Part shown: one piece after another, positions 5,832 to 44,427 of the stretch | Position numbering within the stretch: the stretch's first letter is position 1 | Layout: each line of letters starts with the position of its first letter | Program-made: the position numbers and the translations under genes | From: a bacterium | GTDB taxonomy: Bacteria; UBA10199; 2-02-FULL-50-16; JAJFLM01 | NCBI GenBank assembly: GCA_965216315.1 | Contig: CBDCFN010000016.1 | Location: 2,277,060 to 2,341,059, forward strand | Direction: 5' to 3' | DNA length: 64,000 nucleotides | The notes under the pieces: generated by a model | Databases searched by the model: none | Seen by the model: only the letters and a program-made list of their open reading frames with translations | What the model was told of the DNA's origin: nothing

Positions 5832-6179
5832 ATGTCGTATCAAATTCATACCGTCCGTCCGGGAGACACGTTGGCAAGCATTGCGCGGCACTACGGCGTC
5901 ACCATGCAGCAACTCCGGAAGCTGAATGTTCATCTCACGCAATCGAGTGGCTCGATTCCTCGTACGAGTGCAGGAAGTAAGATTTACGTCGGTGACGAAG
6001 TCCGTATTAAAGAGCTCCTTGAGTGCGGCCGCAACGTCGGGCCTTTTCAGTTGGGTTGTCGTTATGCGTCGAGTGACACATTAAAACTGGAGTTTGGTAT
6101 CAAGGGCGACGTAAGCACACAACCCCTTAATTCCTCAATCATGGTTGGCGCCAGAATCACTTTTTCCGGGGGCAACTAA
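5832..6179 (+). CDS. LysM domain protein
   Basis: MSYQIHTVRPGDTLASIARHYGVTMQQLRKLN is a canonical LysM motif; start taken at the internal ATG 5832 because the upstream part of ORF 5652-6179 crosses a terminator hairpin and a promoter-like motif. Confidence 0.6.
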   Translation: MSYQIHTVRPGDTLASIARHYGVTMQQLRKLNVHLTQSSGSIPRTSAGSKIYVGDEVRIKELLECGRNVGPFQLGCRYASSDTLKLEFGIKGDVSTQPLNSSIMVGARITFSGGN

Positions 6180-10213: not shown

Positions 10214-11062
10214 TTAAGCCTTGGGGCTCGTTAACGGAAACATGTGAATATTGACCTGAACGACCTCTTCCGGGGTTTCATCTGCGGAGACGAATTTGAG
10301 GATGTCCTGACGAAATTTTTGGACTTTTTTCTTGAGTTGCTCCAGCCTTTCTTTACGCACCCCGAGGGTCAATGCACTGATATCGCGTCGTTCTCCCGGT
10401 ACGGTATCAAGAACCTCCTTGGTCAACTCGAGCATATTATAATGATATGCAAATAATTCGATCGAGCGAACATCCGCCCCCGTCGAAACTAAACTATGGC
10501 TCTGTTTCCACCGACCTTTTTTATTGCGCTTGGCGAAGCCCAAGGTTTCTAATAATTCGAGAGAATGCGTCACATCGGCAACAGATACTTTCGGAAAAAT
10601 CCGTTCCGCAATCCATTCAGCAGTCCCGTCATATTCTTTTGCCGTAATGAGTTCGCGAATGACGGCATGGTACCAACGAGAGCAATATTCATATTGGTGC
10701 GTGCGTATCGGTTCTAACTGGTTATACTTTCTCGACCGCAGCATGCGTTGATAATAACGCTCTTTGTCCCGCTGATGTTCCTCCTGCGTATAATGAACCA
10801 GGTTTTCAAAAAATTCCGTCTCCTGCTTGTTCAGCTTGAGCGCCTTGGCCACTTTAGGAATGCTTTCTTGGCTCAAATTTCGCTTGCCCTGCAACACCAT
10901 CATAATGAAATTCCAGGACTTGAGGCCGGCACGCTCCGAGAACTTTCGATACGACATGCCCGCCCGGGTCTGTTTAGCAGCTTTGTACCAATCGTTTAGA
11001 AAATCACGATAATCTAGATAACTAAACGGGCTGACCTGATTGGCAATGCGTGACTGTGACAT
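10214..11062 (-). CDS. XRE-type HTH protein, TIGR02147/DUF4423-like paralog 3
   Basis: 282 aa; DYRDFLNDWYKAAKQTRAGMSYRKFSERAGLKSWNFIMMVLQGKRNLS; closest in sequence to paralog 5. Confidence 0.75.
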   Translation of the reverse strand: MSQSRIANQVSPFSYLDYRDFLNDWYKAAKQTRAGMSYRKFSERAGLKSWNFIMMVLQGKRNLSQESIPKVAKALKLNKQETEFFENLVHYTQEEHQRDKERYYQRMLRSRKYNQLEPIRTHQYEYCSRWYHAVIRELITAKEYDGTAEWIAERIFPKVSVADVTHSLELLETLGFAKRNKKGRWKQSHSLVSTGADVRSIELFAYHYNMLELTKEVLDTVPGERRDISALTLGVRKERLEQLKKKVQKFRQDILKFVSADETPEEVVQVNIHMFPLTSPKA

Positions 11063-11440
11063 AGGGGTTTCAATGATCTTATAACAACCCCCTCATCAAG
11101 TACACAGAAATTGGCATGATGCTTTTAAAGAAAAGAGGCTAATAATACCTCGCTTTTTAGCAGCGAGTTTTCTGTACACGCTCAATGCACAGAGCCTTGT
11201 TGCAGAGGACACCGGCAAGGCGGCACAGCAGGCAATGACGGGGCGACGACCGGAGAGACGCCGCCCCGCCCAGGGTTCAGCTAGCGGTATTGACCGATTC
11301 CAAGGAAACGGACGCACCCGACAACCACCAGCAGAGCCAGAGTGCCTACAGAGAGAAGAACTGATGACTCGCCCGAACAGTTAGTTATCGGATATATGAG
11401 GTCCGCGGATGCGGATTATCAGCAGAATATTCTATAATCA

Positions 11441-11456
11441 GTGTACTTTAGTACAC
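11441..11456. promoter_or_regulatory. palindromic operator-like site GTGTAC-ttta-GTACAC
   Basis: perfect 6 bp half-sites; preceded by TATAAT on the + strand; in the 445 bp region upstream of paralog 3. Confidence 0.45.
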
Positions 11457-11506
11457 TAACAAGTCTCATTTATTTAACAATTCTAAGCAACTATGATTAG
11501 TCGATT

Positions 11507-12701: not shown

Positions 12702-14180
12702 TTATTGTCTCAACAGCGCACGGCGCCCAAACAACACGCCTAATGCTGCCAAGGCCATCACGAAGAGGCCGAGTGTATTTGCCGCGTGAGGCGTCGCGTT
12801 CAGGCTACAACCACCCGATGTCGCGAGTGATTCACTTTCTTCACCCGTTCCATCACCGACGATAACTTCTTCATTTTCCGCCGGATTCTCTTCCGCATCC
12901 TCTCCCTTATCCGCGTCTATGTTTATAAGTTCGCCTTCACATTGATCATCACAACCGTCGCCATTTTCTTCATTCCCGTCGTCGCAGTCCTCTCCCTCAT
13001 CCACAATACCATTGCCACAGAGACCTTTTTCGAAGGCCCCGACATCCGAACTGACCCCAAGAGGCCTCGGAAAACCGCGCTGGTCTTCAGCCAGCTTGAC
13101 AATGATGGCGGCATCAATAGCGAGGCTGCCGGCTCCAAGCGCATGTGTGCGGGTGTCTCCGCCGTTAAAAGCCAAGGCTTGCAACTTAAGATCGGCACTG
13201 TCGACTCCCGATTGATCCGTCGTTTCCGTAAGGTTACAGGTTCCGTCGACATCAATGTTGCCACCACCCGATGTAATCGTCCCGAGACCACCGGACGTAT
13301 CGCAATTCGCGTCAACGCCGCCGGATCCGTCTACCTGTGCCAACAAACTATTATACAAATTCACTTCGCCATCACCGGCAACGAGATGAGCCGCTAGCAG
13401 GTCAGCACGATTATGATAGAAAGTGACATGCCAGAGATCCACATCGTCCGCGAGACTCACCAGCCCGCCACCGGTCGGCGCCGTATTGTTACTGATCGTG
13501 ACATTCACCAACTTGATGTTGCTAGAGCCCGTTCCAACGGCAACACCGCCACCAAAATCGGCAGCGCTATTGTCGCTGACCAAACAGCGCTCCATATCAA
13601 GCGTTCCGGTTCCTATCGCCAGACCGCCGCCAGCGTCGGCTTCATTGCCGATAAGCTCGACATCACGCAAAATAATATCACCGGATCCATCCGAATAGAT
13701 TCCGGCACCGGGTTCCGTGGGGCTCGATCCACTCTGAATCGAGAGTCGCTCAAAAGTTACGTTCGCATTATTTAAAACGTGAAACACTCGACTGTGTTGA
13801 CCACCACTGATAATCGGCAGAGGCAATTTCTTAAGCGGGATAGCACCCGAACTCAAACTCGGGTCCCCTTGGATGATGACATCATCCGTGATATCAAAAT
13901 CGCGCAGGCCATTCGCATCATCATCGACAAGCATCGTCTCATCGATTCCATAAATGCCGTTGGCAATGATAATCGTATCTTCGCCGGGATTGCTATTCGC
14001 TAGATTAATCGCCGCACGCAAGGTGCATGACGTTCCGCCACCGAGCATGAAGAAACAGATACCACCATCTTCCGTTCGATCCACGGTATAAGTCTCCGCG
14101 TGGACTTGAGCCGCCGCCAACATCGCGACAACCACCGCGCTAATAATTGAGAATTTTTTAATCGTTTCCAGTATACCCAT
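12702..14180 (-). CDS. secreted beta-helix protein with CSLREA-type motif, one Myxococcus-type cysteine-rich repeat and MYXO-CTERM-like C-terminal sorting signal
   Basis: 492 aa; signal peptide; CTLRAAINLAN motif; CGNGIVDEGEDCDDGNEENGDGCDDQC; C-terminus SGGCS...TLGLFVMALAALGVLFGRRALLRQ (Cys motif, hydrophobic helix, basic tail). Confidence 0.75.
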   Translation of the reverse strand: MGILETIKKFSIISAVVVAMLAAAQVHAETYTVDRTEDGGICFFMLGGGTSCTLRAAINLANSNPGEDTIIIANGIYGIDETMLVDDDANGLRDFDITDDVIIQGDPSLSSGAIPLKKLPLPIISGGQHSRVFHVLNNANVTFERLSIQSGSSPTEPGAGIYSDGSGDIILRDVELIGNEADAGGGLAIGTGTLDMERCLVSDNSAADFGGGVAVGTGSSNIKLVNVTISNNTAPTGGGLVSLADDVDLWHVTFYHNRADLLAAHLVAGDGEVNLYNSLLAQVDGSGGVDANCDTSGGLGTITSGGGNIDVDGTCNLTETTDQSGVDSADLKLQALAFNGGDTRTHALGAGSLAIDAAIIVKLAEDQRGFPRPLGVSSDVGAFEKGLCGNGIVDEGEDCDDGNEENGDGCDDQCEGELINIDADKGEDAEENPAENEEVIVGDGTGEESESLATSGGCSLNATPHAANTLGLFVMALAALGVLFGRRALLRQ

Positions 14181-14275
14181 GATCTTTCCTCCAGTTAGAA
14201 ATTTTTCGGTCCTACTAGTTATCGACTCCGGTGGGGTCTAAGTTGAGCGTCAATGAGGAATATTTACCTAAAACA

Positions 14276-14291
14276 GTGTACATGAGTACAC
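14276..14291. promoter_or_regulatory. palindromic operator-like site GTGTAC-atga-GTACAC
   Basis: 96 bp upstream of the 12702-14180 start, in an AT-rich promoter region. Confidence 0.45.
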
Positions 14292-18150: not shown

Positions 18151-18723
18151 TCAAACTGGTCTGTCTAATTTTTTATATGTTAGCTTTTTTTCGTCTGGAA
18201 TCACGGGGATGAGTTCGATCGACATCGTCATCATCTCTTCAGGAACGACATCATCGTCGACTAAATTGAGAAGTTTACTCCGAAACTCTCGGATTATTTT
18301 TTTGAGTTGAGGCAAGTTATCTCTAATGATTCCAAAAGTAATCTCACTTAAATCGCGTTTACCCTGATCGAGGCTGAGTGTTTGAAGGCGATGCACATTA
18401 CGAATAGCCATCAGTTCTAGATAGTGTTCCTTAATTTCGTCAGGGCTCTCAGCCTGATTTAAGAAGACGAGATGCCGAAAATACTCCGCTTCGTCGTCTT
18501 CCAAGCGCAAACCTCGAATAAATTTTCTTAAACTTTTTAGTGTTAGGTTGCGGTCGCCATCCATAACGAGCTTGAGGATATTAGAAGAACCAAACCCGGC
18601 ATGTTGTGAAAAGATACGGAGAGAAAATCCGTAGGTCAGGCGCTTGGCACTCTCATACCAGTCCTTGAGAAAAGTCCTATAATCGAGATAATCATAGACA
18701 CAGATGTCGGATACAATATTCAT
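18151..18723 (-). CDS. XRE-type HTH protein, TIGR02147/DUF4423-like paralog 4, shortened (about 190 aa versus about 283)
   Basis: YDYLDYRTFLKDWYESAK...SLRIFSQHAGFGSSNILKLVMDGDRNLT conserved; central block present in the other four copies is missing; start taken at rc ATG 18721-18723; no lipoprotein partner downstream. Confidence 0.6.
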   Translation of the reverse strand: MNIVSDICVYDYLDYRTFLKDWYESAKRLTYGFSLRIFSQHAGFGSSNILKLVMDGDRNLTLKSLRKFIRGLRLEDDEAEYFRHLVFLNQAESPDEIKEHYLELMAIRNVHRLQTLSLDQGKRDLSEITFGIIRDNLPQLKKIIREFRSKLLNLVDDDVVPEEMMTMSIELIPVIPDEKKLTYKKLDRPV

Positions 18724-18936
18724 GCTAAACCTGTATCCGCTTTGATGCCCACTTTCCTTATCGGTCAAAGCCAAATTTTGTTTTCAACTATTTTTAATTT
18801 TTTGAAAAAACTCTTAATTTCAGCGACTTATAATGACTACGAGGCAGGCGGAACGGACCGCAGCCTCTCGGTCCGCCCGCCAGCAGTGCTATCGCACCGG
18901 TCATACCCTCGCGATAGGTGGAGTCATTTTCATCGA

Positions 18937-30327: not shown

Positions 30328-30443
30328 TGTGGAAACGGGTCATCGCAAATATCCTTTTATTTTATCGATAGTTCGCAGCGATATCTGGAGTGAGCTAGGC
30401 GCAGGAGTGACCTAGGGTGCCGAAATTGTGAGCGAAGCAATTG

Positions 30444-30517
30444 TCGGGGAGACAGGATTTGAACCTGCGACCCCTGCGTCCCGAACGCAGTGCTCTACCA
30501 GGCTGAGCTACTCCCCG
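30444..30517 (-). tRNA. tRNA-Pro (anticodon CGG)
   Basis: cloverleaf readable by eye: acceptor CGGGGAG/CTCCCCG, D-arm GCTC..GAGC, anticodon stem CTGCG/CGCAG with loop TTCGGGA, T-arm GGTTCAAATCC; CCA not encoded. Confidence 0.9.
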
Positions 30518-30725: not shown

Positions 30726-31700
30726 TTAGGACCCTGACATCACGACACCGCGAGGCGGGGTAAAGGTCAAGTGCCCGCGTCCCGCCTGGGTAAAGGCCAT
30801 CGAGCGCAAGATTTCATGAGGGGTCGAGGTTGCGTCATCCACGGTCGCCAAGAGAACGTAGCCACAACCGGCGTGATACGCCGACCCCTTTTTATAAGGG
30901 ACGGGATGGTATTCGGTGCCCTCAATGACGTACGGATCCCCTCCCTCGCCGGCTTGGGGAATGCCTGCCTGACCCACGGGGGCTATCATGACATTGTCGA
31001 AGGTCCGCGTATAGGTCACACCCTCCGCCGTGCGTCCCGTCACTCCCAGCTGTCCTGCCACCGGGTTAAAAGGGCCCTGGAGAGGAAGACGAATCGAATC
31101 ACTGGAAAGATGGGACGTCCCGCCAAAACGAATGTCGCTGGCCAGATAAACCTGAGCCCCGTCGCTACCTTCCACCGTCTTACCGGCGATCGAGACGAGG
31201 AGCCCCTCGAGCTCCGTCGATTGACTCAAGGCCGTCTGAATATCACGGACCAGTGCCTGCTCCTGGCTGTCACTAAGATCCAATCCCGAGGCGAAGACCT
31301 GCACGCGGTCCAGAGACGCCATGGTCAGCCCCTCGGTATTCGCAACCGTCGCATCGAGATAAATCATCAAGGATCCGGTATCGAGACGGGTGTAGCGATC
31401 GCCCAAGGCTCCGGTCAGGGTCTCTCCCACGATTCGATTGACCTCCGGATTGGAGAGGCGATGGCCGGGGTCCGACATGGGCGGCGTCGACGCTGAAGAG
31501 GCCGGGAGGGTCCGTGCCATCACGGATGTACCGCCGTTGGCACCTGAAGACCCCGCCATCGCTTGAAACGAACGGCTTACCTCGGCCTCCGTCATAGTTG
31601 GCTCGGCCGCTACGGCGGTATCACTGGATACAAATTGTGCTGTATTGATATCGGCCATGGTGCGAACCATGGCGCTTCCTTGAATAATTGTTTCAGACAT
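30726..31700 (-). CDS. hypothetical protein
   Basis: start at MSETIIQ with GGAGG SD; 5' UTR and upstream operator nearly identical to those of 42867-43409; no recognised domain. Confidence 0.5.
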   Translation of the reverse strand: MSETIIQGSAMVRTMADINTAQFVSSDTAVAAEPTMTEAEVSRSFQAMAGSSGANGGTSVMARTLPASSASTPPMSDPGHRLSNPEVNRIVGETLTGALGDRYTRLDTGSLMIYLDATVANTEGLTMASLDRVQVFASGLDLSDSQEQALVRDIQTALSQSTELEGLLVSIAGKTVEGSDGAQVYLASDIRFGGTSHLSSDSIRLPLQGPFNPVAGQLGVTGRTAEGVTYTRTFDNVMIAPVGQAGIPQAGEGGDPYVIEGTEYHPVPYKKGSAYHAGCGYVLLATVDDATSTPHEILRSMAFTQAGRGHLTFTPPRGVVMSGS

Positions 31701-31769
31701 TACACACCTCCATGCCTTATTTATTTTCGTCACAATACTCAGGGCAGTTGTGAATGGCGCCGAGATTCA

Positions 31770-31786
31770 GTGTACTCTCAGTACAC
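31770..31786. promoter_or_regulatory. palindromic operator-like site GTGTACT-ctc-AGTACAC
   Basis: 70 bp upstream of 30726-31700 start; the extended 19 bp match CGTGTACTCT-N-AGTACACG is shared with 43478-43496. Confidence 0.5.
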
Positions 31787-31950
31787 GATATTATATGTTA
31801 TAACTATTTGTTTTTATTTATTATTCTATCTATTCTATTTTTTATGTGATTATATATGAAGGAGTTAAAAGTACACGAGGCGAGAACGCAGCAACTTAGA
31901 ATTAATGCCGTCGATAAGACCTCGACTCAAGTGAGGGAGGCTTGTGTGGT

Positions 31951-32853
31951 GTGAGTGGAAACTTCTGTAAACCCTTAAAAGATCAAGATCCGACCGCTCA
32001 TGCGCTCTGTAACCAACTGCGTCATGCCGGCGTCACGAGGGACACACTCGACCAAGGTTCGACTCGCCCTGACTACCAGAACTTCGGCCGTCACCAACTC
32101 GAGGTCACCGACACGTCCGGTTTCTCAATGGCGCACAATGGCGTCCTTGAAATCGCAGAAATTTATGACGCGGCCCTAGCCGCTGCGAGCCTGGCCTGGC
32201 AGCAACCCAGCCGGTACCACGTCGACCCTCGGTCGCAACTAGCCATCCCTTGGCTCCCATCGACCGGCAGTGGTGACACCTCAGTGGATCGCCAACTAGA
32301 AGCCTTGATCCAAAATCCAGCCGCGGCCCTGCCCACCCATGAACCTCCGGGTAGCCCGGCCGCCCATCGTCAGCTGGCCCAACTCCTTTATACAATCTTG
32401 TTACCGGCACTGAACCCAGGGACAGACCTTGACGCCTACCTCTATGCTTCCTACTGCCGCAAACTCGGCATTGTCGCCCAACCGATAGAGTTGACCCTGT
32501 CCGATCGCGTACTGATCGGACTCCAGCTCGATCCCCAGTGGCCCAACCACCTGACATTTGTCGACTTTACGAGAGGGCCGCGCGGTTTTGACGTGACCCT
32601 CTTTGCCGGCGATTGGGTCGCCATCTCCGAGCGAGAGCTGCTCGCCTATCATTATCTCCAGCAAGCGGCCCAACCCCAGGGACTCCAGCGGGCCCTCATG
32701 ATCGCCCCGCAGAACTACCGCGTCATTGCCGCCGAGGCCCGCTTCTTAATGGAAAACGGTTCGCGTGATCAGGCCTGCCAGCGGCTCCGCGAGAGCCTCC
32801 GCCTCAACGCCGTCTTCGCCGGCGCCAGTCAGATGTACGCCCATGACTGCTAA
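31951..32853 (+). CDS. hypothetical protein, possible Cys-His-Asp hydrolase-like fold
   Basis: ORF 31942-32853; GAGGGAGG SD at 31933-31940 favours the GTG at 31951; ordered motifs ASYCRKLGI, NHLTFVDF, GDWV noted, but assignment is weak. Confidence 0.45.
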   Translation: MSGNFCKPLKDQDPTAHALCNQLRHAGVTRDTLDQGSTRPDYQNFGRHQLEVTDTSGFSMAHNGVLEIAEIYDAALAAASLAWQQPSRYHVDPRSQLAIPWLPSTGSGDTSVDRQLEALIQNPAAALPTHEPPGSPAAHRQLAQLLYTILLPALNPGTDLDAYLYASYCRKLGIVAQPIELTLSDRVLIGLQLDPQWPNHLTFVDFTRGPRGFDVTLFAGDWVAISERELLAYHYLQQAAQPQGLQRALMIAPQNYRVIAAEARFLMENGSRDQACQRLRESLRLNAVFAGASQMYAHDC

Positions 32854-32900
32854 CACACGCGCACCGTGACAAAGTTGCAGGGCTCTGTTAGGCCCAAGGC

Positions 32901-34976
<2,076 letters not shown>

Positions 34977-34988
34977 GAAATAGACACT

Positions 34989-35549
34989 ATGCTGTTAGAC
35001 ATCGTTAAATACCCGAACCCGGAACTCACGAAGGCCTGTGCCCCCGTTGACGCCGTTAATCAGGACATCCGTCAACTCGTGACCGATATGTTCGAAACCA
35101 TGTACGCCAATCAGGGCGTCGGGTTGGCGGCCCCCCAGGTAGGCGTCCCTCTCGACCTACTCGTTATCGACGTCGGGCGGCTCGAAAATGAAGAGACTAA
35201 GCCGGACCCGATTGCCTTGATCAATCCTCAACTTAAGAGCCAAGAAGGCAAAATTATCTGGGAAGAAGGCTGCCTTTCGTTGCCTGAGCTCATCGTCCCG
35301 GTCGAGCGTTCCGCCAAGGTCGTCGTGACGGCCCTCAATCCGGATGGAAAGGAAATTACCCTCCTCGGGGAAGAACTACTGGCCGTTGCCCTCCAGCACG
35401 AGATCGACCACCTCAACGGCATCCTCCTCGTCGACAAGGTCTCGCGGCTCAAGCGTGACCTCTATCGCAAAAAATTGGCTAAGCATGAGGTCATCGAGGA
35501 ATCGATCGAGGCCCCCGCCGTAGCCAGTCGAAAACCTTATCTGGGGTAG
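34989..35549 (+). CDS. def: peptide deformylase
   Basis: motifs GVGLAAPQVG, EGCLS, QHEIDHLNG. Confidence 0.9.
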   Translation: MLLDIVKYPNPELTKACAPVDAVNQDIRQLVTDMFETMYANQGVGLAAPQVGVPLDLLVIDVGRLENEETKPDPIALINPQLKSQEGKIIWEEGCLSLPELIVPVERSAKVVVTALNPDGKEITLLGEELLAVALQHEIDHLNGILLVDKVSRLKRDLYRKKLAKHEVIEESIEAPAVASRKPYLG

Positions 35550-35554
35550 AAGCG

Positions 35555-36556
35555 ATGACGTCACCCCTTCGCATCCTCTTTATGGGTAGTCCCGCCGCTG
35601 CGGTCCCCTGTCTCGATTATCTCCATGAATCAGAACATGAGCTGGTCGCCGTCGTCACGCAACCGGATCGTCCGGTGGGGCGCGGCCGCCACCTGACTCC
35701 TTGTGCCGTCGCGGCGCGCGCCCGCGAATTGGATCTGCCCCTCTATCAGCCCGACAAATTGACACAACCTCCCTTCAGCGACACCCTCAAGCCGCTCGCG
35801 ATCGACCTCGCCATCGTCGTCGCCTACGGCAAGCTGTTGAGACCTGATATACTGCAAGCCCCCCGCTATGGCTGTTGGAATGTCCACTTCTCGCTCCTGC
35901 CCAAGTATCGCGGGGCGGCCCCCTGTCAATGGGCCCTCATCAATGGCGAAGCTGAGACGGGCATCAGTATCATTCGCCTGGTTGAGGCGCTGGACGCCGG
36001 CCCGATTCTCAACCAGGCCCGCACTCCCATCGATGCCAACGAAACGGCGGGTGAGCTACTGACGCGACTCGCCGCACAAAGCCCGGCGCTCCTTGCGAAG
36101 ACCCTCAAGGAGCTCCAAATGGATCGCCTCAATGAAACGGTCCAGGATGACGCAGCGGCCAGCCTCGCCCCCATCCTCAAAAAGGAGGATGGCCACTTGG
36201 ATTGGACGCAGAACGCGCTTCAGCTCAAGAACCGAATTCGGGGACTCAACCCCTGGCCCGGGGCCTATAGTTATTTGCCCCATGAGATAGGCTCGGCGCC
36301 ATCACACAGGGGACCCTCCGTTGACAAGATCCGGCTGAAAATCTACAGTGCCCAAACCGTCACATCACCGGGCCCTGAAGCTAACAAGGCAAGCCCGGGA
36401 ACAATACTCCAGGCGGACATCAAAGCGGGACTCTGGGTGGCCTGTGGCGACGGCGCCCTGCAAATCGACGAACTCCAGTCCCCTGGGAAGAAACGCATGC
36501 GTGCCGCCGATTTTTTACGGGGGCACCCGCTCAATGAGGAGTCACAGCTCTTATGA
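35555..36556 (+). CDS. fmt: methionyl-tRNA formyltransferase
   Basis: N-terminal formyltransferase domain (RILFMGSP, NVHFSLLPKYRGAAP) directly downstream of def. Confidence 0.9.
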   Translation: MTSPLRILFMGSPAAAVPCLDYLHESEHELVAVVTQPDRPVGRGRHLTPCAVAARARELDLPLYQPDKLTQPPFSDTLKPLAIDLAIVVAYGKLLRPDILQAPRYGCWNVHFSLLPKYRGAAPCQWALINGEAETGISIIRLVEALDAGPILNQARTPIDANETAGELLTRLAAQSPALLAKTLKELQMDRLNETVQDDAAASLAPILKKEDGHLDWTQNALQLKNRIRGLNPWPGAYSYLPHEIGSAPSHRGPSVDKIRLKIYSAQTVTSPGPEANKASPGTILQADIKAGLWVACGDGALQIDELQSPGKKRMRAADFLRGHPLNEESQLL

Positions 36557-37206
36557 AACTCATCGCTCCTTCCATCCTTTCGGCCGATTTTGCGAACCTC
36601 GGCACTGAAATCCAGGCGGTCGAGCAGGCCGGCGCCGACTGGATCCACTGCGACGTCATGGACGGCCATTTCGTCCCGGCCCTGACGATAGGACCCATGC
36701 TGGTCGAAGCCGCGGCACGCAGCACGAGCCTCCCGCTCGACGTCCACCTGATGATTGAAAATCCGGACGACTACATCCCCGAATTTGCAAAGGCGGGGGC
36801 CCAGTATATCACCGTCCATCAGGAGGCCTGCCCCCACCTGCATCGGACGATACAGCTCATTAGAGACAACGGCGCCAAACCAGGCGTCTCGCTGAATCCA
36901 TCGACCCCCGTCAGCACACTTGAGGACATTCTCGAAGACGTGGACCTCGTACTGATCATGACCGTCAATCCGGGTTTTGGGGGCCAGGAGTTTATCGAAG
37001 GCTGCCTGCCCAAGATCTCCAAGCTGCGTCAAATGATCGATGCGGGCACGCACCCCGTCCTCCTCGAGGTCGATGGCGGCGTCAAGGCCCACAACATCGC
37101 CCGCCTCTCCGAAGCGGGGGCCGATGTCTTCGTCGCCGGGTCTGCCATCTTTGGCAGCGACGACTATGCTAGCACCATCGCAGCCTTTCGCAAGGCCATC
37201 GCCTAG
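36553..37206 (+). CDS. rpe: ribulose-phosphate 3-epimerase
   Basis: MKLIAPSILSADFANLG..., HCDVMDGHFVP, TVNPGFGGQ motifs; 4 bp overlap with fmt. Confidence 0.9.
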   Translation: MKLIAPSILSADFANLGTEIQAVEQAGADWIHCDVMDGHFVPALTIGPMLVEAAARSTSLPLDVHLMIENPDDYIPEFAKAGAQYITVHQEACPHLHRTIQLIRDNGAKPGVSLNPSTPVSTLEDILEDVDLVLIMTVNPGFGGQEFIEGCLPKISKLRQMIDAGTHPVLLEVDGGVKAHNIARLSEAGADVFVAGSAIFGSDDYASTIAAFRKAIA

Positions 37207-37359
37207 ACCTGATCTGCGTCATTTCATAGCGAACAAAGTGAGCGAGAGGGGGAGGCTCCAGGAGCTTTGCTTCTGGAGGGGGCGACGCAAGCCCCTACGA
37301 CGTCCTGGTGCGTCATAAATCCTGGACAATGCGTCATTGGATATGTAAGCATAGGATGT

Positions 37360-37569
37360 ATGGAGCTCGAAATCTATCGTGCCGCAATCGGAGGACTCGG
37401 ACCGTGGGAACTGGTCATCATTCTCGCAGTCGTCTTAGTCGTGTTTGGTGCCGGCAAGCTCCCGAAGGTGGGATCATCAATCGGTGAGGCCCTCAAGAAT
37501 TTTAAAAAATCAGTCAGTAGTGACGATGACGATCAAAATAAGAAACCGGATGGAGGGGATGCATCATGA
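37360..37569 (+). CDS. tatA: twin-arginine translocase subunit TatA/E
   Basis: GGLGPWELVIILAVVLVVFGAGKLPKVGSSIGEALKNFKK is the TatA TM plus amphipathic helix signature; start taken at in-frame ATG 37360; acidic C-terminus. Confidence 0.7.
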   Translation: MELEIYRAAIGGLGPWELVIILAVVLVVFGAGKLPKVGSSIGEALKNFKKSVSSDDDDQNKKPDGGDAS

Positions 37570-38084
37570 CGGCCAAAAAGGAACGGATAATTAAGCGCTA
37601 TCAAAACCGTAAGCTCTATGACACGAGCCAAAGCCGGTACGTAACGCTCAACGATATCGCCGACATGATCAAGAACGGTGAAGACGTCAAGATTATTGAT
37701 AACCAGTCCAAAGAGGATCTGACCTCGCTGACTTTGACGCAGATTATCTTTGAACAAGAAAAGAAGAAAAAAAGCCTCCTCCCGCTTCCAGCGCTGCGGG
37801 ACATCATTCGCAGTGGACCGAGCCAAGTCGTCGATTTTGTCGCCAGTAAGGCCGACGAGGTCGTGCACTCCATTACCCATGCCCGCGATGAGGTGGAAGA
37901 CTATCTGGATAAAATGATCAAAAAAGGCGATCTCTCGCTCGAAGATATGCGCCAGCTCCTCCGCTCCTTCGTCGACAATAAGATCAAGCCGAAGATCGGT
38001 GTCCCCGGCTTCCAGTCCGAAGTCCATCAGATGCGCAAGAAGATCGACGATCTGGAGAAGAAGCTTCAGCAGTATGAAAAGTAG
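37566..38084 (+). CDS. PhaR-like DNA-binding protein (PHA synthesis repressor family N-terminal domain)
   Basis: RIIKRYQNRKLYDTSQSRYVTLNDIADMIKNGEDVKIIDNQSKEDLTSLTLTQIIFEQE closely matches the PhaR N-terminal domain; coiled-coil C-terminus; start overlaps tatA stop. Confidence 0.7.
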   Translation: MTAKKERIIKRYQNRKLYDTSQSRYVTLNDIADMIKNGEDVKIIDNQSKEDLTSLTLTQIIFEQEKKKKSLLPLPALRDIIRSGPSQVVDFVASKADEVVHSITHARDEVEDYLDKMIKKGDLSLEDMRQLLRSFVDNKIKPKIGVPGFQSEVHQMRKKIDDLEKKLQQYEK

Positions 38085-39007
38085 TGTTCGCAGACCTGTC
38101 TCGAAAAAAGCTCATCCTCGTCTCCGGTAAAGGGGGCGTCGGCAAAACGACGATCAGCGCGGCGCTCGCCTGGCACTTAAGCCAGGCTGGCCGCAAGGTC
38201 CTGCTCGCTACGATCGATTGCGAGGACCAAATCCCCTCCCTCTTTGACCGCAAGCCGATGGGCTATGAACCGAGTCCACTCCGCCCCCAACTCTCCGGCA
38301 TCAACATTACCGCCCGTAAGGCTTTTGAAGAATATGTCGTCCGACAGATCATGTTTCACTCGATCTATTCAGCCGTCTTCGACAATAAATACGTGCGCGC
38401 TTTTATTGAGGGCACCCCGGGCATGGCGGAGCTCATGTGCATCGGTAAGGTCTACGACATGGTCGATGAATACGACACGATCGTGCTCGATGCCCCCGCA
38501 ACCGGACATGGTAAGTCGCTCCTCCAAGTCCCGACGGTTGTTGCCGAAGCCGTCCGGGTTGGTCCTCTGAAGACAAATTCCGAGAAAATTGAAGCCCTTC
38601 TTAAGGACTCAACAAAAACCGGCCTGCTCATCGTCAGTCTTGCCGAGGAAATGCCGGTTGAGGAGACCCTCGAACTGCGGGAATGGATCCAAAGCCATCT
38701 CGGCATTGAGCCAACCGGGGTTATCATTAACGGCCTGTTTACACCGTTGTTCCCCCACCACTCCGATCAAGAACGATGTGAGACTTTTTTCCGCGAACAC
38801 AACTCCAACCCCGTCATGGAAGGCTTACGTCATAGCTATTATATGCGCATGAAACGCTCGGAGCTCCATGCGCACTACACGCAACAGCTGCAAGAACAAC
38901 TTAAAGGGCTCCCAACCGTAGAAATCCCGTTTTATTTTTGCGAATCTATTGGGACAACTGAGCTCAAAGACATTGGAGAACGCATCGAAAGCCATGAATC
39001 AACGTAA
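38084..39007 (+). CDS. ArsA/GET3-family P-loop ATPase (single domain), copy 1
   Basis: GTG start overlapping PhaR-like stop; deviant Walker A VSGKGGVGKTT; DAPATGH switch motif. Confidence 0.75.
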   Translation: MFADLSRKKLILVSGKGGVGKTTISAALAWHLSQAGRKVLLATIDCEDQIPSLFDRKPMGYEPSPLRPQLSGINITARKAFEEYVVRQIMFHSIYSAVFDNKYVRAFIEGTPGMAELMCIGKVYDMVDEYDTIVLDAPATGHGKSLLQVPTVVAEAVRVGPLKTNSEKIEALLKDSTKTGLLIVSLAEEMPVEETLELREWIQSHLGIEPTGVIINGLFTPLFPHHSDQERCETFFREHNSNPVMEGLRHSYYMRMKRSELHAHYTQQLQEQLKGLPTVEIPFYFCESIGTTELKDIGERIESHEST

Positions 39008-40124
39008 AGGCAAACCCAAACTCTCCGCACTGATCCAATCCCAGGAGATTCTCGTCGTCTGTGGCAGCGGTGGCGTCGGCAAAACAACCTCGGCGGCCGC
39101 CATCGCAATGCAAGCGGCCATGATCGGCAAACGAGCTATCGTCCTCACGATTGATCCCGCCAAGAGATTGGCTTCTTCAATGGGTCTCGAGGCCCTCACG
39201 GATGAACCGATGCAAATACAGGACGATTATTTTCCGAGCCCGCCTAAGGGATCGCTCCATGCCATGATGCTCGATACCAAACGGACCTTTGATCGTATCA
39301 TCGAAAAATATGCCCCCTCGGTGGAGGCACGACAGGCCATCTTGGAGAACCGTCTCTATCAACAAATGTCCAATATGCTCGCCGGCTCGCATGAGTACAT
39401 GGCCATGGAACGACTGTATGAAATCCACCATGATGGTAATTTCGATCTGGTCGTCCTGGATACGCCACCGACGCGTAACGCCCTTAATTTTCTCGACTCA
39501 CCTAAAAAAATGGTCGACCTGACGCGCCACTCCGTCATCAAGTGGTTTCTTAAACCAGGGGTCTTTGCCGGCAAAGTCAGCTTTGGGCTCTTCCAAAAAA
39601 CAGCGGAAAAAGTCCTCAATGTCTTCGATCAACTTGCCGGTTTTAGTTTTCTCCATGAGCTAGCGGAAATGATTAGCGGCATGGCCGATATGTTGGGGGG
39701 GTTTGGTGAACGCGCCGAAAAGATTTATGAGCTGCTACGCTCGTCAAAAGTCAGTTTCATCTTAGTCGCTACTCCTGAAAAAATGGCATTGCAAGACGCA
39801 CGCTACTTTCATGAGCAGATCGGCGAATATGAATTACCTCTCGCCGGTTTTGTATTTAACCGGGTCTATCCGAATTACATTCCATCGGAGGAAGCGATTG
39901 AAGAGGCCAGGGCCCAACTCAAATCACTCCCCAACAACGTCGAAATCGGCTTGATCAAGAATCTTGAGGACTTTTTTATGCTGCAAAAGAGACATGAATT
40001 GAGCATCAAGGAATTCAAAAAGGCATGTGGCTCCAAGACCTTCTACACGTCCGTCCCTTTTTTAGAGACGGACGTGCATGACATGGAAGGACTTGCCGAA
40101 ATTAATCGGTATTTATTCGCTTAA
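38994..40124 (+). CDS. ArsA/GET3-family P-loop ATPase (single domain), copy 2
   Basis: Walker A CGSGGVGKTT, LDTPPTRN motif; ORF track start 38949, ATG 38994 chosen to minimise overlap. Confidence 0.75.
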   Translation: MNQRKGKPKLSALIQSQEILVVCGSGGVGKTTSAAAIAMQAAMIGKRAIVLTIDPAKRLASSMGLEALTDEPMQIQDDYFPSPPKGSLHAMMLDTKRTFDRIIEKYAPSVEARQAILENRLYQQMSNMLAGSHEYMAMERLYEIHHDGNFDLVVLDTPPTRNALNFLDSPKKMVDLTRHSVIKWFLKPGVFAGKVSFGLFQKTAEKVLNVFDQLAGFSFLHELAEMISGMADMLGGFGERAEKIYELLRSSKVSFILVATPEKMALQDARYFHEQIGEYELPLAGFVFNRVYPNYIPSEEAIEEARAQLKSLPNNVEIGLIKNLEDFFMLQKRHELSIKEFKKACGSKTFYTSVPFLETDVHDMEGLAEINRYLFA

Positions 40125-40125
40125 A

Positions 40126-40710
40126 CTATCCGAAGTATTCTTTGAGGCCTTCACTGTTCGGCTTCATCGACTTCTCACCCTCTTGCCAGTTGGCCGGGCA
40201 AACTTCGCCGTGTTTCTCATGAAACTGCAGGGCCTCCACCATGCGAAGGGCCTCATCCACGCTGCGGCCTAATGGCAGATCATTGACCACTTGATGACGC
40301 ACTTTACCATCCTTATCGATCAAGAAGAGACCACGATAGGCAATACCCGCACCTGGAACAAGCACGTCATAATCAGCGGCAATCGACTTACTCAGATCGG
40401 ATACCAACGGATACGTCACGCCTTCGATACCACCGACTTTCTTAGGTGTATTGACCCACGCCAGATGAGAGAAATGTGAATCAACTGAACATCCAATAAC
40501 TTGAACATCCTTGGCTTCAAATTCGGCCAGCTTCTCTTGAAAGGCATGGATTTCAGTCGGACATACAAAAGTAAAATCGAGGGGATAGAAAAAAAGTACG
40601 ACATACTTCTTCCCCTTGAATTGCGACAAGGTAAATCCATCTTGGATATCGCCATTGACAACCGCGTTAGCTTTAAAATCTGGAGCCGGTTTTCCGACTA
40701 GTACACTCAT
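40126..40710 (-). CDS. typical 2-Cys peroxiredoxin (AhpC/Tsa family)
   Basis: FFYPLDFTFVCPTE peroxidatic Cys motif and C-terminal resolving Cys (EVCPANW). Confidence 0.9.
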   Translation of the reverse strand: MSVLVGKPAPDFKANAVVNGDIQDGFTLSQFKGKKYVVLFFYPLDFTFVCPTEIHAFQEKLAEFEAKDVQVIGCSVDSHFSHLAWVNTPKKVGGIEGVTYPLVSDLSKSIAADYDVLVPGAGIAYRGLFLIDKDGKVRHQVVNDLPLGRSVDEALRMVEALQFHEKHGEVCPANWQEGEKSMKPNSEGLKEYFG

Positions 40711-40737
40711 GATTCACTCCTTTTTATCATCTTGTGA

Positions 40738-41154
40738 TTACGTTGTTGCTATACAATCTTGACAAATCCCCGTGAGAACAACTGAGACAGAGTCGACACG
40801 ATTGTTTGTCCTTTTTTCAAAATCTTTAAAAGTAGGCAGCCCACCCTCATCGGGAATATCTAAAATCGCGTGGCATTCCGAACAACAGAAATGGTGATGA
40901 GGCTTTGTCTCCGGGTCGAAACTGACCTGATCTTCGTAAAACTTATATTTTCGGACCAAGCCCAATTCACTCAACATGTTGAGCGTATTATAAACAGTGG
41001 CCATGCTCATCGTCGGGTAGGCCGGCTTGAGATCTTCGTAAACCCGCGCCGCAGTGGGATGGGACCTGTTGCCCTCCATATAATCGACGATCGAGAGGCG
41101 CTGCGGGGTAAGCTTGAAACCTGATTCCTTCAATTTTTCAGTGAGTTGGCTCAT
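40738..41154 (-). CDS. Fur-family metalloregulator, likely PerR-type given adjacent peroxiredoxin
   Basis: Fur-type HTH (LKLTPQRLSIVDYM), HHHFCC..C metal-site motifs; 138 aa; 21 bp palindrome immediately upstream. Confidence 0.8.
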   Translation of the reverse strand: MSQLTEKLKESGFKLTPQRLSIVDYMEGNRSHPTAARVYEDLKPAYPTMSMATVYNTLNMLSELGLVRKYKFYEDQVSFDPETKPHHHFCCSECHAILDIPDEGGLPTFKDFEKRTNNRVDSVSVVLTGICQDCIATT

Positions 41155-41158
41155 TACT

Positions 41159-41179
41159 AATTAAGAATAATTCTTAATT
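41159..41179. promoter_or_regulatory. perfect 21 bp palindrome AATTAAGAAT-A-ATTCTTAATT, candidate Fur/PerR-type operator for the regulator-peroxiredoxin operon
   Basis: 7-1-7/10-1-10 inverted repeat architecture resembling Fur/PerR boxes, located 5 bp upstream of the regulator start codon. Confidence 0.55.
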
Positions 41180-41217
41180 TAGAATTATTATAACTTAGAA
41201 CAAGGAAGTCAAGGGGC

Positions 41218-41556
41218 CTATTCAGCCGTGTACGCCACGATGGCCTCATGGTCCGTGGAGCCAAGGTCGATAAAACGGATCCCGAGTCCGGAGACACCAG
41301 GATAAGTAGGGGCCAGCTTTTCGAGCCGAACCACCTCGCCGGTCGTACGAATCGGCGCCTCCGTCGGCCCCAATGAAAAAGAAAGAAACATCTTCGTACC
41401 TAATTTGAGTGGAATTTCCGACTCGATAAACAGGCCACCCAAACTAATATCCGTTGTATAGAAGTAAATAAATCCTTCTCCGAATTCATCTTCGAGAACA
41501 ACTTGAGTTCTCAAAGTCTTGCGCGGATGAATGCGTTTTTCAGATGCGTCTGCCAT
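41218..41556 (-). CDS. PilZ domain protein (putative c-di-GMP receptor)
   Basis: RIHPRK (RxxxR) and DISLGG (D-x-S-x-x-G) motifs; 112 aa. Confidence 0.7.
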   Translation of the reverse strand: MADASEKRIHPRKTLRTQVVLEDEFGEGFIYFYTTDISLGGLFIESEIPLKLGTKMFLSFSLGPTEAPIRTTGEVVRLEKLAPTYPGVSGLGIRFIDLGSTDHEAIVAYTAE

Positions 41557-41990
41557 TAGCCTTTGGCACTCCTTTTAAGTCGCCGTTTCTTAGGGGCCGG
41601 CGCCGGTTCTGTCGAACCACTGAGCGGATGAAATTTAGAAGCCACTCGATTGATGACGGTGATCAAGTCGTAAGGATAAAACGGCTTCGGCACGAGCTCG
41701 ACCTTGTCTTCTTCGCGAGCCAACTCTTTGAGATCCATCCGTTGCGGGCCACTGATCAACACCGTCGGATATTCATCGATAAAGGCCGGCCGGCCTTCCT
41801 GCTCGATCGCATTGCCATTAATGAGAATCACGTGAGGTTTCGCTCGGCGTTGGCGGGCATCCAGACCGTCTGCACTCTCGGCAAATTCAATCCGATAACC
41901 GGGCAGATCCCTGAAGAGCAGCCCATACATATTCTTGGCTAATTCCGAGCGATCAATGATCAAAAGACGCAAAGTAGAGGTGCGACGCAT
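41556..41990 (-). CDS. response-regulator receiver-like protein (divergent REC domain)
   Basis: LLIIDRSE...VILINGN pattern like CheY-fold receivers; basic C-terminal tail; overlaps PilZ start by 1 nt. Confidence 0.5.
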   Translation of the reverse strand: MRRTSTLRLLIIDRSELAKNMYGLLFRDLPGYRIEFAESADGLDARQRRAKPHVILINGNAIEQEGRPAFIDEYPTVLISGPQRMDLKELAREEDKVELVPKPFYPYDLITVINRVASKFHPLSGSTEPAPAPKKRRLKRSAKG

Positions 41991-42185
41991 GGGAGAGAAC
42001 CTACTTCAATAGGACGCGGATGACAAGCCTTACGAAAAAGGCGTCATAGGTGGGCCAGGGGTGGGATTTGCTCGCTACGCTCACCGCAATCTAAGGAATT
42101 ACATCCTGGTCTTCGCCTTCGGCGAAGCGGATTGTCGAACCCACTGCCTGTGGCAGGGGCTTCTCATCCTCCACTACAAATAAAA

Positions 42186-42215
42186 ATAAGGACCCCAGTT
42201 AGGGTCCTTATTTTT
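42186..42215 (-). terminator. intrinsic terminator downstream of tRNA-Ser(GCU), hairpin flanked by A and T runs on both sides
   Basis: AAGGACCC-cagtta-GGGTCCTT perfect 8 bp stem flanked by AAAAAT and ATTTTTAT. Confidence 0.65.
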
Positions 42216-42218
42216 ATG

Positions 42219-42305
42219 CGGAGAGGGTGGGATTCGAACCCACGGTGCAGTTTCCCGCACACTTCCTTAGCAGGGAAGCGCCTTCAGCCACTCGGCCACC
42301 TCTCC
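42219..42305 (-). tRNA. tRNA-Ser (anticodon GCU)
   Basis: acceptor GGAGAGG/CCTCTCC, anticodon stem CTTCC/GGAAG with loop CTGCTAA, long variable arm, T-arm GGTTCGAATCC; 87 nt. Confidence 0.9.
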
Positions 42306-42552
42306 GATCCGAAAACGAAAGCGCAGCTTCCGCTTTCTTTAGTTAAGGGGAAGATACTGCTCTCCCCCTTAACTATCCCTCATCTGTCATAATCGCCTCA
42401 ATTTCAAGATATTTTCTAAGGAGGGGGTACCAGCGAGCGCAGCGAGTGTCCGTAGGGGGAACCTGGGTTCCCCCTCGGAAATATTCGAAAGTGACAATTG
42501 GATTCAATCTATGAGCTTCGTTTTAGCGAAGCCCTCTAGGTCACTACAGATG

Positions 42553-42637
42553 CGGAGGGGGTGGGATTCGAACCCACGGTACCTTGCGGCACGGCGGTTT
42601 TCAAGACCGCTGCCTTCAACCACTCGGCCACCCCTCC
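42553..42637 (-). tRNA. tRNA-Ser (anticodon UGA)
   Basis: acceptor GGAGGGG/CCCCTCC, anticodon stem GCGGT/ACCGC with loop CTTGAAA, long variable arm, T-arm GGTTCGAATCC; 85 nt. Confidence 0.9.
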
Positions 42638-42805
42638 AATTCGCCAGCGAAAGCATGAGCTTTCACTGGCCTTAGTTAAGGGGGGAGATAAGGGCCTCCC
42701 CCCCTAACAATTCCCCTCTGTCTTGTTCAGACGGGGGTACGGAGAAGTGTCACATCCTAGCGACGTTGAAGTATGTTGGCAAGTCAGGTGTTCATTTACA
42801 CACCC

Positions 42806-42826
42806 AAAAAGCCCCTCGCGGGGCTC
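42806..42826 (-). terminator. intrinsic terminator downstream of 42867-43409
   Basis: minus-strand GCCCC-GCGA-GGGGC hairpin followed by TTTTT. Confidence 0.55.
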
Positions 42827-42866
42827 TTGGGGTGTGTATTGGGTGATGTAAAGAAAAACTTTCAAC

Positions 42867-43409
42867 TTATTTTGCGTCAGCCACGACTCCAGTATCCAAA
42901 TTAAGGTAGTGACGGTGTCTTCCCGTCGCATCTGTATAGACAAGCTTAACTTCATGGTCGTTACGCCCTGCCGTAATACGGACATTCCGCTTAATGTAAT
43001 TGAAGCCATTTAGGTCGCGATCAAATTTTCCAATAGTTGAACCAATCAATCGATACTGACCATCCGACATCAACGCAGACGTTTCTTCCCAGCCAGAACC
43101 GTCACCCCAATACCGTGTATTATCATCTCTACGGGTTAGGGATACGAAATGACGGTCCAAAGTTTTTTGGGCTCTTTTGCTGGTCTTGTAGCGTGTGTCA
43201 TGATCGAGTCGATTTTTACATAGATCATCCAGTGCCCTCCGAGGATCGATTGAGCGCTCGACTCCATCGATTGTTTGGCAAAACGCATCCCCTTCATCGA
43301 CAACCCCATTCTCATTGAGATCACGAACTCTCATGCCAGCGGGATTATTAGAATTGTACTCGTCGACAGATACCTGTTTAAATAACTTCGGATTCTTTAT
43401 TTCCGCCAT
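42867..43409 (-). CDS. hypothetical protein
   Basis: start at MAEIKNPKLF with GGAGG SD; 5' UTR and operator nearly identical to those of 30726-31700; terminator downstream. Confidence 0.5.
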   Translation of the reverse strand: MAEIKNPKLFKQVSVDEYNSNNPAGMRVRDLNENGVVDEGDAFCQTIDGVERSIDPRRALDDLCKNRLDHDTRYKTSKRAQKTLDRHFVSLTRRDDNTRYWGDGSGWEETSALMSDGQYRLIGSTIGKFDRDLNGFNYIKRNVRITAGRNDHEVKLVYTDATGRHRHYLNLDTGVVADAK

Positions 43410-43478
43410 CACACACCTCCATGCTTTTCAAATTTTCGTCAGTATTGACACGAGAGTTGCTACAAGAGAGGTATTTCC

Positions 43479-43495
43479 GTGTACTCTAAGTACAC
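43479..43495. promoter_or_regulatory. palindromic operator-like site GTGTACT-cta-AGTACAC
   Basis: 70 bp upstream of 42867-43409 and 78 bp upstream of paralog 5. Confidence 0.5.
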
Positions 43496-43572
43496 GCTCA
43501 TAATGCCATATAGCCCTTTTTAAACACTAAATAAGTAGGATATTGTCCTTAATATAGACGGAAATTTCGGGT

Positions 43573-44427
43573 ATGATAGTACACGTGACCCCAGTCAAGC
43601 TCTTCGAATACCTCGATTACCGCGAATACCTCAAAGCTTGGTTTGAGGCAGCCAAACAGACACGGGCGGGGATGTCGTACCGGCTCTTTTCCAAGCGGGC
43701 CGGGCTCAAATCGACTAACTTCATCATGCTCGTCATGCAGGGCAAACGGAACTTGAGTGACAAAGCGGCCAAAATGGTCGCGAAAGGGCTCAAGCTGTCC
43801 AAGGAAGAGTCGGAGTTCTTCCGCTATCTCGTCCTCTTTAACCAGGCCGAGGCCCATAACGATAAGGCCCTGTATTATGAGCAGATGCTGCAATTTCGAC
43901 AGTACCGCAAGCACCGGCCGATTAGCCAGGAAGAGTATGCATACTGCTCTCAATGGTATCATGCGGCCATTCGCGAGCTGATCCTTGATCCTGATTTTGA
44001 TGGCAAGCCCACCTGGATCGCGGAACGGCTTGGCAATCGAATTAGCCGCGAGGAGGCTGCAGAATCGCTGAAGTTACTGCAAAAACTGAACTTTGTGCAG
44101 CGCACCCCATCAGGTCGCTGGCAGCAACAGGATGTGACGCTGACGGCGGGATCTCGGGTTGTATCTCTCGAGTTATTCAATTATCATTTAAGTATGATGG
44201 CGCTGTCCCCCCAGTTACTTGAAAGCCTGCCCGGGCAGCGTCGCGATATGAGCGCGGTCACGATGGGTATCGCAGCAGGACGTTTGCCTGAGCTCAAAAA
44301 GAAACTCCAGAAATTCCGTAAGAGTCTCCTCAAATTTTCCGCTGAAGCGGCCGACCCCGAGGAAGTGGTGCAGGTCAATCTCTACATGTTCCCCTTAACC
44401 GTCCCGAAAGGGTGCAAAGACTCATGA
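43573..44427 (+). CDS. XRE-type HTH protein, TIGR02147/DUF4423-like paralog 5
   Basis: 284 aa; YLDYREYLKAWFEAAKQTRAGMSYRLFSKRAGLKSTNFIMLVMQGKRNLS. Confidence 0.75.
   Translation: MIVHVTPVKLFEYLDYREYLKAWFEAAKQTRAGMSYRLFSKRAGLKSTNFIMLVMQGKRNLSDKAAKMVAKGLKLSKEESEFFRYLVLFNQAEAHNDKALYYEQMLQFRQYRKHRPISQEEYAYCSQWYHAAIRELILDPDFDGKPTWIAERLGNRISREEAAESLKLLQKLNFVQRTPSGRWQQQDVTLTAGSRVVSLELFNYHLSMMALSPQLLESLPGQRRDMSAVTMGIAAGRLPELKKKLQKFRKSLLKFSAEAADPEEVVQVNLYMFPLTVPKGCKDS

Follow-up and report, generated by a model that had tools for sequence, protein, structure and literature searches.

The 64,000-nt stretch of DNA analyzed here (the window; positions 2,277,060 to 2,341,059 of contig CBDCFN010000016.1, assembly GCA_965216315.1) originates from a bacterium of the UBA10199 lineage and contains two minus-strand genes, A (30726-31700, 324 aa) and B (42867-43409, 180 aa), with similar upstream regions. 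Gene A is without a family match and gene B belongs to a small uncharacterized family; neither of them has a match in Pfam, NCBIfam, PHROGs, or PADLOC. As a first-pass annotation of this DNA had suggested, the encoded proteins are non-homologous, similarity being undetectable by BLASTP (best E = 1.6). Their upstream neighbors are likewise non-homologous: a TIGR02147/DUF4423 protein is encoded divergently from gene B (43573-44427, +), and an unrelated hypothetical protein next to gene A. The region common to A and B is a module of spaced blocks, comprising a palindrome, two promoter-like elements, and a Shine-Dalgarno (SD) context, for which we propose the TIGR02147 protein as candidate regulator.

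Gapless alignment confirmed the feature upstream of both minus-strand genes, with 60 of 87 positions (69%) matching from the palindrome to the ATG. A null distribution, obtained by pairing upstream regions of 87 nt within this window (2211 pairs), had a mean identity of 25.5% (standard deviation 4.8%) and a maximum of 41%. The similarity is unevenly distributed: identity amounts to 77% over the last 35 nt before the ATG, close to the annotated ~80%, to only 47% from -69 to -35, and to 24%, i.e., chance level, from -200 to -100. It is arranged in blocks at equal spacing, reading GTGTACT-N3-AGTACAC, 19 nt, CAACT, 16 nt, CGAAAAT, 7 nt, and GCATGGAGGTGTGT(A/G)ATG, with a small GAA block also being conserved. 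The identical SD context reported earlier was found again, GCATGGAGGTGTGT being the same over 14 nt in both copies. The claim of the same palindrome at the same distance stands in respect to the spacing, with exactly 58 nt between palindrome and GGAGG in A and B, but the quoted outer C/G pair is complementary in copy B only. The pairwise alignment, proposed by the first-pass annotation as a check, thus extends the similarity beyond SD and palindrome, with CAACT and TGACGAAAAT located in between. Its wording of a “near-identical 5′ untranslated region (UTR)” goes too far for a module that is 67-69% identical and conserved in blocks. We consider the architecture of the module and its conservation as established; A and B share a homologous regulatory module and their co-regulation is very likely.

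In copy A, the palindrome GTGTACT-GAG-AGTACAC (31770-31786), a predicted transcription factor (TF) operator, is followed on the minus strand by the -35-like CAACT (31746-31750), beginning 19 nt past the palindrome, the -10-like TGACGAAAAT (31723-31732), and GCATGGAGGTGTGT (31702-31715), representing the predicted start-site region together with the SD sequence GGAGG ahead of the ATG at 31698-31700. Copy B contains GTGTACT-TAG-AGTACAC at 43479-43495, with perfect 8-bp arms over 43478-43496 and its center 86 bp ahead of the position where the TIGR02147 gene starts (43573). On the minus strand it has the same CAACT (43455-43459) and TGACGAAAAT (43432-43441) blocks in common with copy A, followed by the predicted start-site and SD region GCATGGAGGTGTGT (43411-43424) and the ATG at 43407-43409. 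These two are the only matches to GTGTACT-N3-AGTACAC in the window, even with up to two mismatches allowed (0.02 expected). A minus-strand half-site, CGTGTACT, precedes both palindromes: in A by 90 bp (31870-31877), ~15 nt upstream of the -35 of a divergent promoter, and in B by 89 bp (43578-43585), within codons 2-5 of the TIGR02147 open reading frame (ORF). All five window copies of this 8-mer are located in the A and B upstream regions (0.53 expected).

The inner blocks belong to an abundant motif. AAC-N16/17-CGA(A/T)AA occurs 18 times in the window in comparison to 1.8 occurrences expected from shuffles, and at least 12 of these matches are intergenic and 10-75 nt upstream of a gene start, A and B included. 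A further match is the divergent promoter at locus A, CAACT-N15-TCGATAA (31892-31917, +), ahead of the hypothetical gene 31942-32853. The -10-like element of A and B, GACGAAAA, has the CGA core with two mismatches to CCGATAA, reading CGAAAA in contrast to the CGATAA of the 16 other window sites and to the sigma-28 sequence GCCGATAA. The spacing of AAC, 17 nt, and CGA fits sigma-28 promoters, whose -35 (TAAA or TTAAG) is placed 15-16 nt ahead of the -10; the -35 CAACT has only the AA core in common with TTAAG. Because the inner blocks match the promoter motif of the window in sequence and position, most of the shared region is probably an operator and a promoter with a leader of ~16 nt, rather than a 5′ UTR. 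Instead of beginning at the palindrome and giving a UTR of 70-90 nt, transcription is predicted to start in GCATGG, 7-9 nt past CGAAAAT, which would place the palindrome center near -62. A sigma-54 promoter was ruled out on inspection of the sequence, its GG/GC spacing being wrong. Examples of the motif are found at 4824, 5606, 15133, 22395, and 31912 (+) and at 2805, 4623, 14224, 15026, and 18763 (-). Given this abundance, a sigma-28-like factor may be responsible for much of the transcription in the organism, similar to what has been reported for the attack phase of Bdellovibrio.

Related palindromes are present elsewhere in the window, GTGTACT alone occurring 11 times (2.3 expected). Palindrome C, AGTGTACT-TT-AGTACACT (GTGTAC-N4-GTACAC, 11440-11457), is located upstream of the TIGR02147 paralog gene 10214-11062, with CGATAA (11385-11390, -) 50 nt downstream and an additional half-site at 11099-11105. 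Palindrome D, GTGTAC-TCAT-GTACAC (14276-14291), lies upstream of a gene for a secreted, signal-peptide protein (12702-14180, -) and is followed by CAACT (14241-14245) and CGATAA (14219-14224). The distance from palindrome to CGA is 50 nt in C and 51 nt in D, compared with 40 nt in A and B, and is thereby longer by one helical turn.

The candidate regulator divergent from gene B matches its family over the full length, scoring 256 bits (cutoff 50) with the model TIGR02147 (Fsuc_second) and E = 2.4e-38 with the Pfam model DUF4423. Including this gene, the window encodes five TIGR02147 paralogs (3721-4569, 7373-8233, 10214-11062, 18151-18774, and 43573-44427), each followed by a same-strand gene for a lipoprotein-like or signal-peptide protein. 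In the family alignment, the window paralogs are 35-52% identical to 43573-44427; for 10214-11062 (-), an alternative or additional candidate binder of GTGTAC sites, the identity is 53%. A structure model calculated from 78 homologs reached a predicted local distance difference test score (pLDDT) of 90.9 and a predicted template modeling score (pTM) of 0.80, establishing a fold with an N-terminal XRE/HigA-like helix-turn-helix (HTH) and a winged helix. An initial model from five sequences, set aside as too weak, had a pLDDT of 66, and a Foldseek search with it against the PDB gave no match at E ≤ 0.001 (best E = 0.16). According to their source annotations, the homologs derive from Bdellovibrionales, Polyangiales, Deltaproteobacteria, and Chitinivibrionales/Chitinispirillales. 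None of the five paralogs has a recognizable SD sequence, many metagenomic family members look leaderless (-10 ~6-8 nt before the start codon), and the paralog 18151-18774 is devoid of ~77 residues covering the winged-helix region.

Extension of the analysis toward the whole family, by scanning metagenomes with the paralog alignment, yielded 80 loci, 74 of them usable, with 78 intragenic segments serving as controls. A GTnTnC-N4/5-GnAnAC palindrome, mostly centered 55-85 nt from the gene start, was present within 200 nt upstream of 40 of the 74 TIGR02147 loci compared with 3 of the 78 controls. The more specific GTGTAC-N3-6-GTACAC was found four times in 289 kb (~0.07 expected). On the side of the TF gene, 16 of 34 family loci have a TTG -35 that begins 17-19 nt past the palindrome, corresponding to the distance to CAACT in A and B. 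Arm sequence and predicted recognition helix vary together: all five loci with the helix MLV(M/I)QG (Q type) have GTG arms, and 34 of 35 loci with KLV(M/I)DG have GTA or GTT arms (Fisher p = 9e-6). The B-locus protein, having the Q-type helix MLVMQG within the predicted recognition helix NFIMLVMQGKRN, combines it with GTG arms, as this covariation predicts; the paralogs 10214-11062 and 7373-8233 are also of the Q type. The dyad upstream of the TIGR02147 gene is present at B and at the orthologous locus of a relative (L011/L091, described below), and copy A has the dyad with no adjacent TF gene. The association of palindrome and TF gene as well as the helix-operator covariation are established. 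Because of this covariation, in our view the strongest evidence, the palindrome is best understood as a DNA operator read by TIGR02147 proteins, and probably is the operator of the TIGR02147/DUF4423 protein encoded divergently from B.

The same data bear on an explanation at the RNA level, according to which the shared region would be an mRNA-stabilizing 5′ stem-loop, a riboswitch, or a small RNA or CsrA target governing translation. We regard it as very unlikely, even though both predicted RNAs can form a hairpin of 7-8 bp from the palindrome and share the same 14-nt SD context. A DNA operator, not an RNA hairpin, is expected to have arms that track a protein recognition helix; moreover, the arms are invariant and thereby devoid of compensatory changes. 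Neither the upstream half-site nor the palindromes ahead of the -35 boxes of TIGR02147 genes would be part of the transcript of the gene. In copy B, the anti-SD stretch UACCUCUC can pair with GGAGGUGU (z = -2.29), but this pairing is not kept in A (z = -0.99) and the two structures differ. For the module, Rfam gave no match at the gathering threshold or even at E ≤ 1, the tRNAs being all that Rfam recognized. In view of these Rfam results and fold z-scores, a CsrA site, a riboswitch, and an anti-SD leader were set aside as being without conserved support.

As our favored reading, we consider it reasonably probable that the module combines a TF operator, an alternative-sigma promoter, and a short leader, that A and B (probably together with D, C, and the regulator) form one regulon, and that the module is reused before different cargo. 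The palindrome GTGTACT-N3-AGTACAC would serve as operator of an HTH regulator of the TIGR02147/DUF4423 family, the likeliest binder being the product of 43573-44427, and the Q-type paralogs 10214-11062 and 7373-8233 may bind as well. A sigma-28/FliA-like alternative-sigma promoter would follow 19 bp downstream, with CAACT as -35, 16 nt, and CGAAAAT as -10, and transcription would start ~7-9 nt later in GCATGG, leaving a ~16-nt leader with little beyond a strong SD sequence. The regulator may act as an upstream class-I-like activator, and A, B, and the other genes with GTGTAC sites would constitute a small regulon. Activation is favored because of the operator position near -62, the helical phasing, and the non-consensus -10 (CGAAAA, not CGATAA). 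The half-site 89/90 bp away could provide a second, cooperative or autoregulatory contact. The module would belong with the regulator gene and have been reused ahead of unrelated lineage-specific cargo. Start site, binding, choice of the paralog, and activation over repression are predictions made from the DNA sequence.

Several observations weigh against this proposal. The CAACT block differs from the canonical sigma-28 TAAA/TTAAG and the -10 has the two mismatches mentioned above, and a sigma factor of the extracytoplasmic function type (AAC-N17-CG) fits about equally well. The window contains three Q-type paralogs and thereby several candidate binders, locus A is without a nearby TIGR02147 gene, and a site at -62 can also repress. 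Finally, -10-like sequences end 2-3 nt before the palindrome, namely TATAAT in A, CATTAT with an upstream TG in B, and TATTCT in L091. The latter would be in line with a sigma-70 promoter just upstream, whose start is covered by the palindrome as a repressor operator, the next 87 nt being a long 5′ UTR common to both genes. The DNA ahead of A is very rich in AT, and the same TIGR02147 protein could still bind the palindrome in such an arrangement. We nevertheless regard it as unlikely: a conserved -35 is absent and a consensus scan gave no promoter upstream of the palindrome, whereas the only strongly conserved blocks within the supposed UTR coincide with the over-represented promoter motif in sequence and spacing. 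In addition, 16 of 34 loci of the family have their palindrome not on the start but 17-19 nt ahead of a -35, and folds of the supposed UTR are unremarkable (z = -0.99 for A, -2.29 for B).

Insight into the age of the module came from a related metagenome-assembled genome (MAG; GCA_964401985.1, loci L011/L091), which encodes a regulator ortholog 85% identical to 43573-44427. Its locus keeps the palindrome, 19 nt, CAACT, 16 nt, CGAAAAT, 7 nt, and GCATGGA, together with the half-site at 89 bp. The module there precedes a gene for a 236-aa signal-peptide protein, which is not an ortholog of B; the first-pass suggestion of a cassette in front of differing cargo is thereby directly supported. Over a 78-nt core, identities are 67% (A-B), 73% (A-L091), and 76% (B-L091) with zero indels, and the spacers between the blocks are just 37-63% identical among the three copies. 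With A and B being no closer to each other than either one to L091, a recent duplication is not supported. An SD segment past GCATGGA is common to A and B only (17 of 22 positions). Because the core identities are similar, indels are missing, and the blocks are kept in the relative, we regard the module copies as old, with selection maintaining both blocks and spacing.

Could the similarity be a neutral remnant, unconnected with any common regulation, that a segmental duplication, a gene conversion, or a small mobile element left behind? The 64 kb contain no more than two full copies, the two cargo genes show poor conservation and adjoin tRNA genes, and the sole homolog of gene A is without the module. 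Conservation in blocks with random-level spacers and zero indels speaks for selection on spaced sites and not for decay, however, and the same blocks are retained at the orthologous locus of the relative with the 85% identical TF. Terminal repeats and target duplications are not visible, and the similarity remains below the criterion for mobile promoters of 80% over 50 nt. We therefore judge this explanation to be extremely improbable. A large segmental duplication was addressed by tblastn, which revealed no pseudogenized TIGR02147 gene upstream of A. Putative mobile promoters have been defined by at least 50 nt at ≥80% identity in the upstream region (Matus-Garcia, Nijveen and van Passel 2012, PMC3488235). 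Aligned without gaps, A and B reach at most 38 matches in 50 nt (76%), narrowly below 80%, and a mobile promoter was rejected on this basis; the upstream and downstream coding sequences of A and B are non-homologous, as that definition also demands (PMC3488235).

Four sites in the window (2843-2862, 4752-4785, 5549-5566, and 5711-5728; 0.15 expected) represent another palindrome family, CTGTTGAC-N2-GTCAACAG, in which ATAA usually comes next. A CGATAA promoter element lies 38-47 nt downstream of the sites at 4766, 5549, and 5711. Site 4766 lies between a TIGR02147 paralog of the K/D type (3721-4569) and the gene 4873-5463, whose SD context is also GCATGGAGG-N5-ATG. This family looks like a parallel operator/regulator pair of differing specificity. 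Two tandem ~165-bp units are located at 5467-5740. Conserved between them is a segment of 35 nt (5467-5501, 5632-5666), and each unit also has a hairpin resembling a terminator (5498-5537, 5662-5699) as well as a palindrome of the TGTTGAC type with CGATAA promoter. The units may represent small-RNA or short-transcript units; a 175-aa ORF at 5652-6179 is without a coding-like GC pattern.

A search of genome contigs with the 18-mer CGTGTACTNAGAGTACAC, which returned none from the source genome, resulted in five single unrelated matches and four in one Spirochaetota MAG (JBCCIA01). The latter belong to a repeat of ~110 nt on at least four contigs (L001:1544-1790, L002, L005, L008), in which the 18-mer caps a long, imperfect hairpin, followed by a second hairpin and with compensatory changes between the copies. 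A nearby TIGR02147 gene and an Rfam match are both absent from this repeat. It was set aside as a source of module copies and is probably an unrelated structured repeat or small mobile element.

In respect to the cargo, gene A has a single homolog (P0005, 68% identity) on a 2.7-kb metagenome contig (L010). The sequence upstream of P0005 (L010:1-180, compared with window 31700-31860) has a ~45-nt AT-rich stretch and CAAATAGTT in common with A, and palindrome, SD sequence, and module are absent from it. P0005 itself appears leaderless, with TATAAT, 8 nt, and an ATG within GCATGG. At the predicted 5′ ends of the module transcripts, the ATG in GCATGG opens out-of-frame ORFs of 6 codons in A and 14 codons in B and L091. 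For gene B, no close relative was found. Its ~10 full-length homologs are remote, with identities of mostly 29-37%, and their N-terminus is conserved. Because the remote homologs keep this N-terminus, we consider B a real gene with its native start. A mobile cassette including the start codon and first codons was ruled out by the N-terminus shared among the B homologs (M-x-x..KNP.L). The region upstream of the gene B homolog in L092 has no palindrome.

Both A and B are situated directly upstream of a same-strand tRNA gene: Pro-CGG follows A (30443-30517), and Ser-TGA and then Ser-GCT follow B (42218-42305, 42552-42637). A tandem duplication of 333-bp period comprises both tRNA-Ser genes together with ~25-45 nt of the sequence flanking them. 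Transcription from the module may continue into the tRNAs. Between the two loci, the overlapping AT-rich palindromes AATTAAGAATAATTCTTAATT and AATAATTCTTAATTTAGAATTATT (41159-41189) are located directly upstream of a PerR-like Fur-family gene (40738-41154) and a peroxiredoxin gene (40126-40710), and resemble an autoregulatory site of the Fur/PerR-box type.

An operator and a promoter common to two genes represent ordinary regulon biology. The link of a conserved DNA dyad to an uncharacterized family, by contrast, suggests a testable function for TIGR02147/DUF4423. Our full-text literature search found no functional study of this family, mention being limited to the listing of a DUF4423 protein in a proteome table; operator motif, recognition-helix code, and regulator role are newly proposed here. 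The proteins are predicted to bind GTnTAC-N4/5-GTAnAC, with the third arm base set by two helix positions. The data also suggest that some sigma-28-like promoters, in an organism rich in them, need an extra upstream factor, and they provide a clean example of one regulatory module serving different lineage-specific genes in sister genomes. As a tentative generalization, which is possible rather than probable, TIGR02147/DUF4423 may be a large, rapidly duplicating family of dual-HTH activators, each paralog reading its own GTnTAC-type dyad ~62 bp upstream of a promoter, with a code in which a K..D helix stands for GTATAC and an M/V..Q helix for GTGTAC. In this lineage the family would be coupled to sigma-28-like promoters, which are normally activator-independent, and would switch on lineage-specific secreted or orphan genes, the operator-promoter module being portable between cargo.

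The proposed architecture can be compared with three known systems. At class I activator-dependent promoters, CRP-type sites are centered near -61.5, -71.5, and so on. The modules resemble these in having a dyad ~62 bp upstream of the predicted start, a non-consensus core promoter, and related promoters one helical turn further away (40 vs. 50/51 nt). In contrast to them, the candidate regulator combines an XRE-HTH with a winged helix and is not of the CRP/FNR type, its partner would be an alternative sigma holoenzyme, and activation is deduced from position only. For the attack phase of Bdellovibrio bacteriovorus, a FliA (sigma-28) consensus of TTAAG-N16-CCGATA has been mapped (Karunker et al. 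2013, PMC3627812). Common to both are the bipartite structure with a CCGATA-type -10 and a spacer of ~16 nt, and the high frequency ahead of many non-flagellar, uncharacterized, and secreted-protein genes. The window promoters differ by a -35 of CAAC(T) instead of TTAAG and, in A and B, by CGAAAA instead of CGATAA; the palindromic TF site at a fixed distance upstream of A and B is a feature unreported for the FliA promoters in that study (PMC3627812). Compared with putative mobile promoters (PMC3488235), the A and B copies are old, block-conserved, and without a link to insertion sequences or miniature inverted-repeat transposable elements, rather than recent and near-identical. They share with them the homologous upstream sequence, the non-homologous genes and flanks, and a cargo differing between related genomes.

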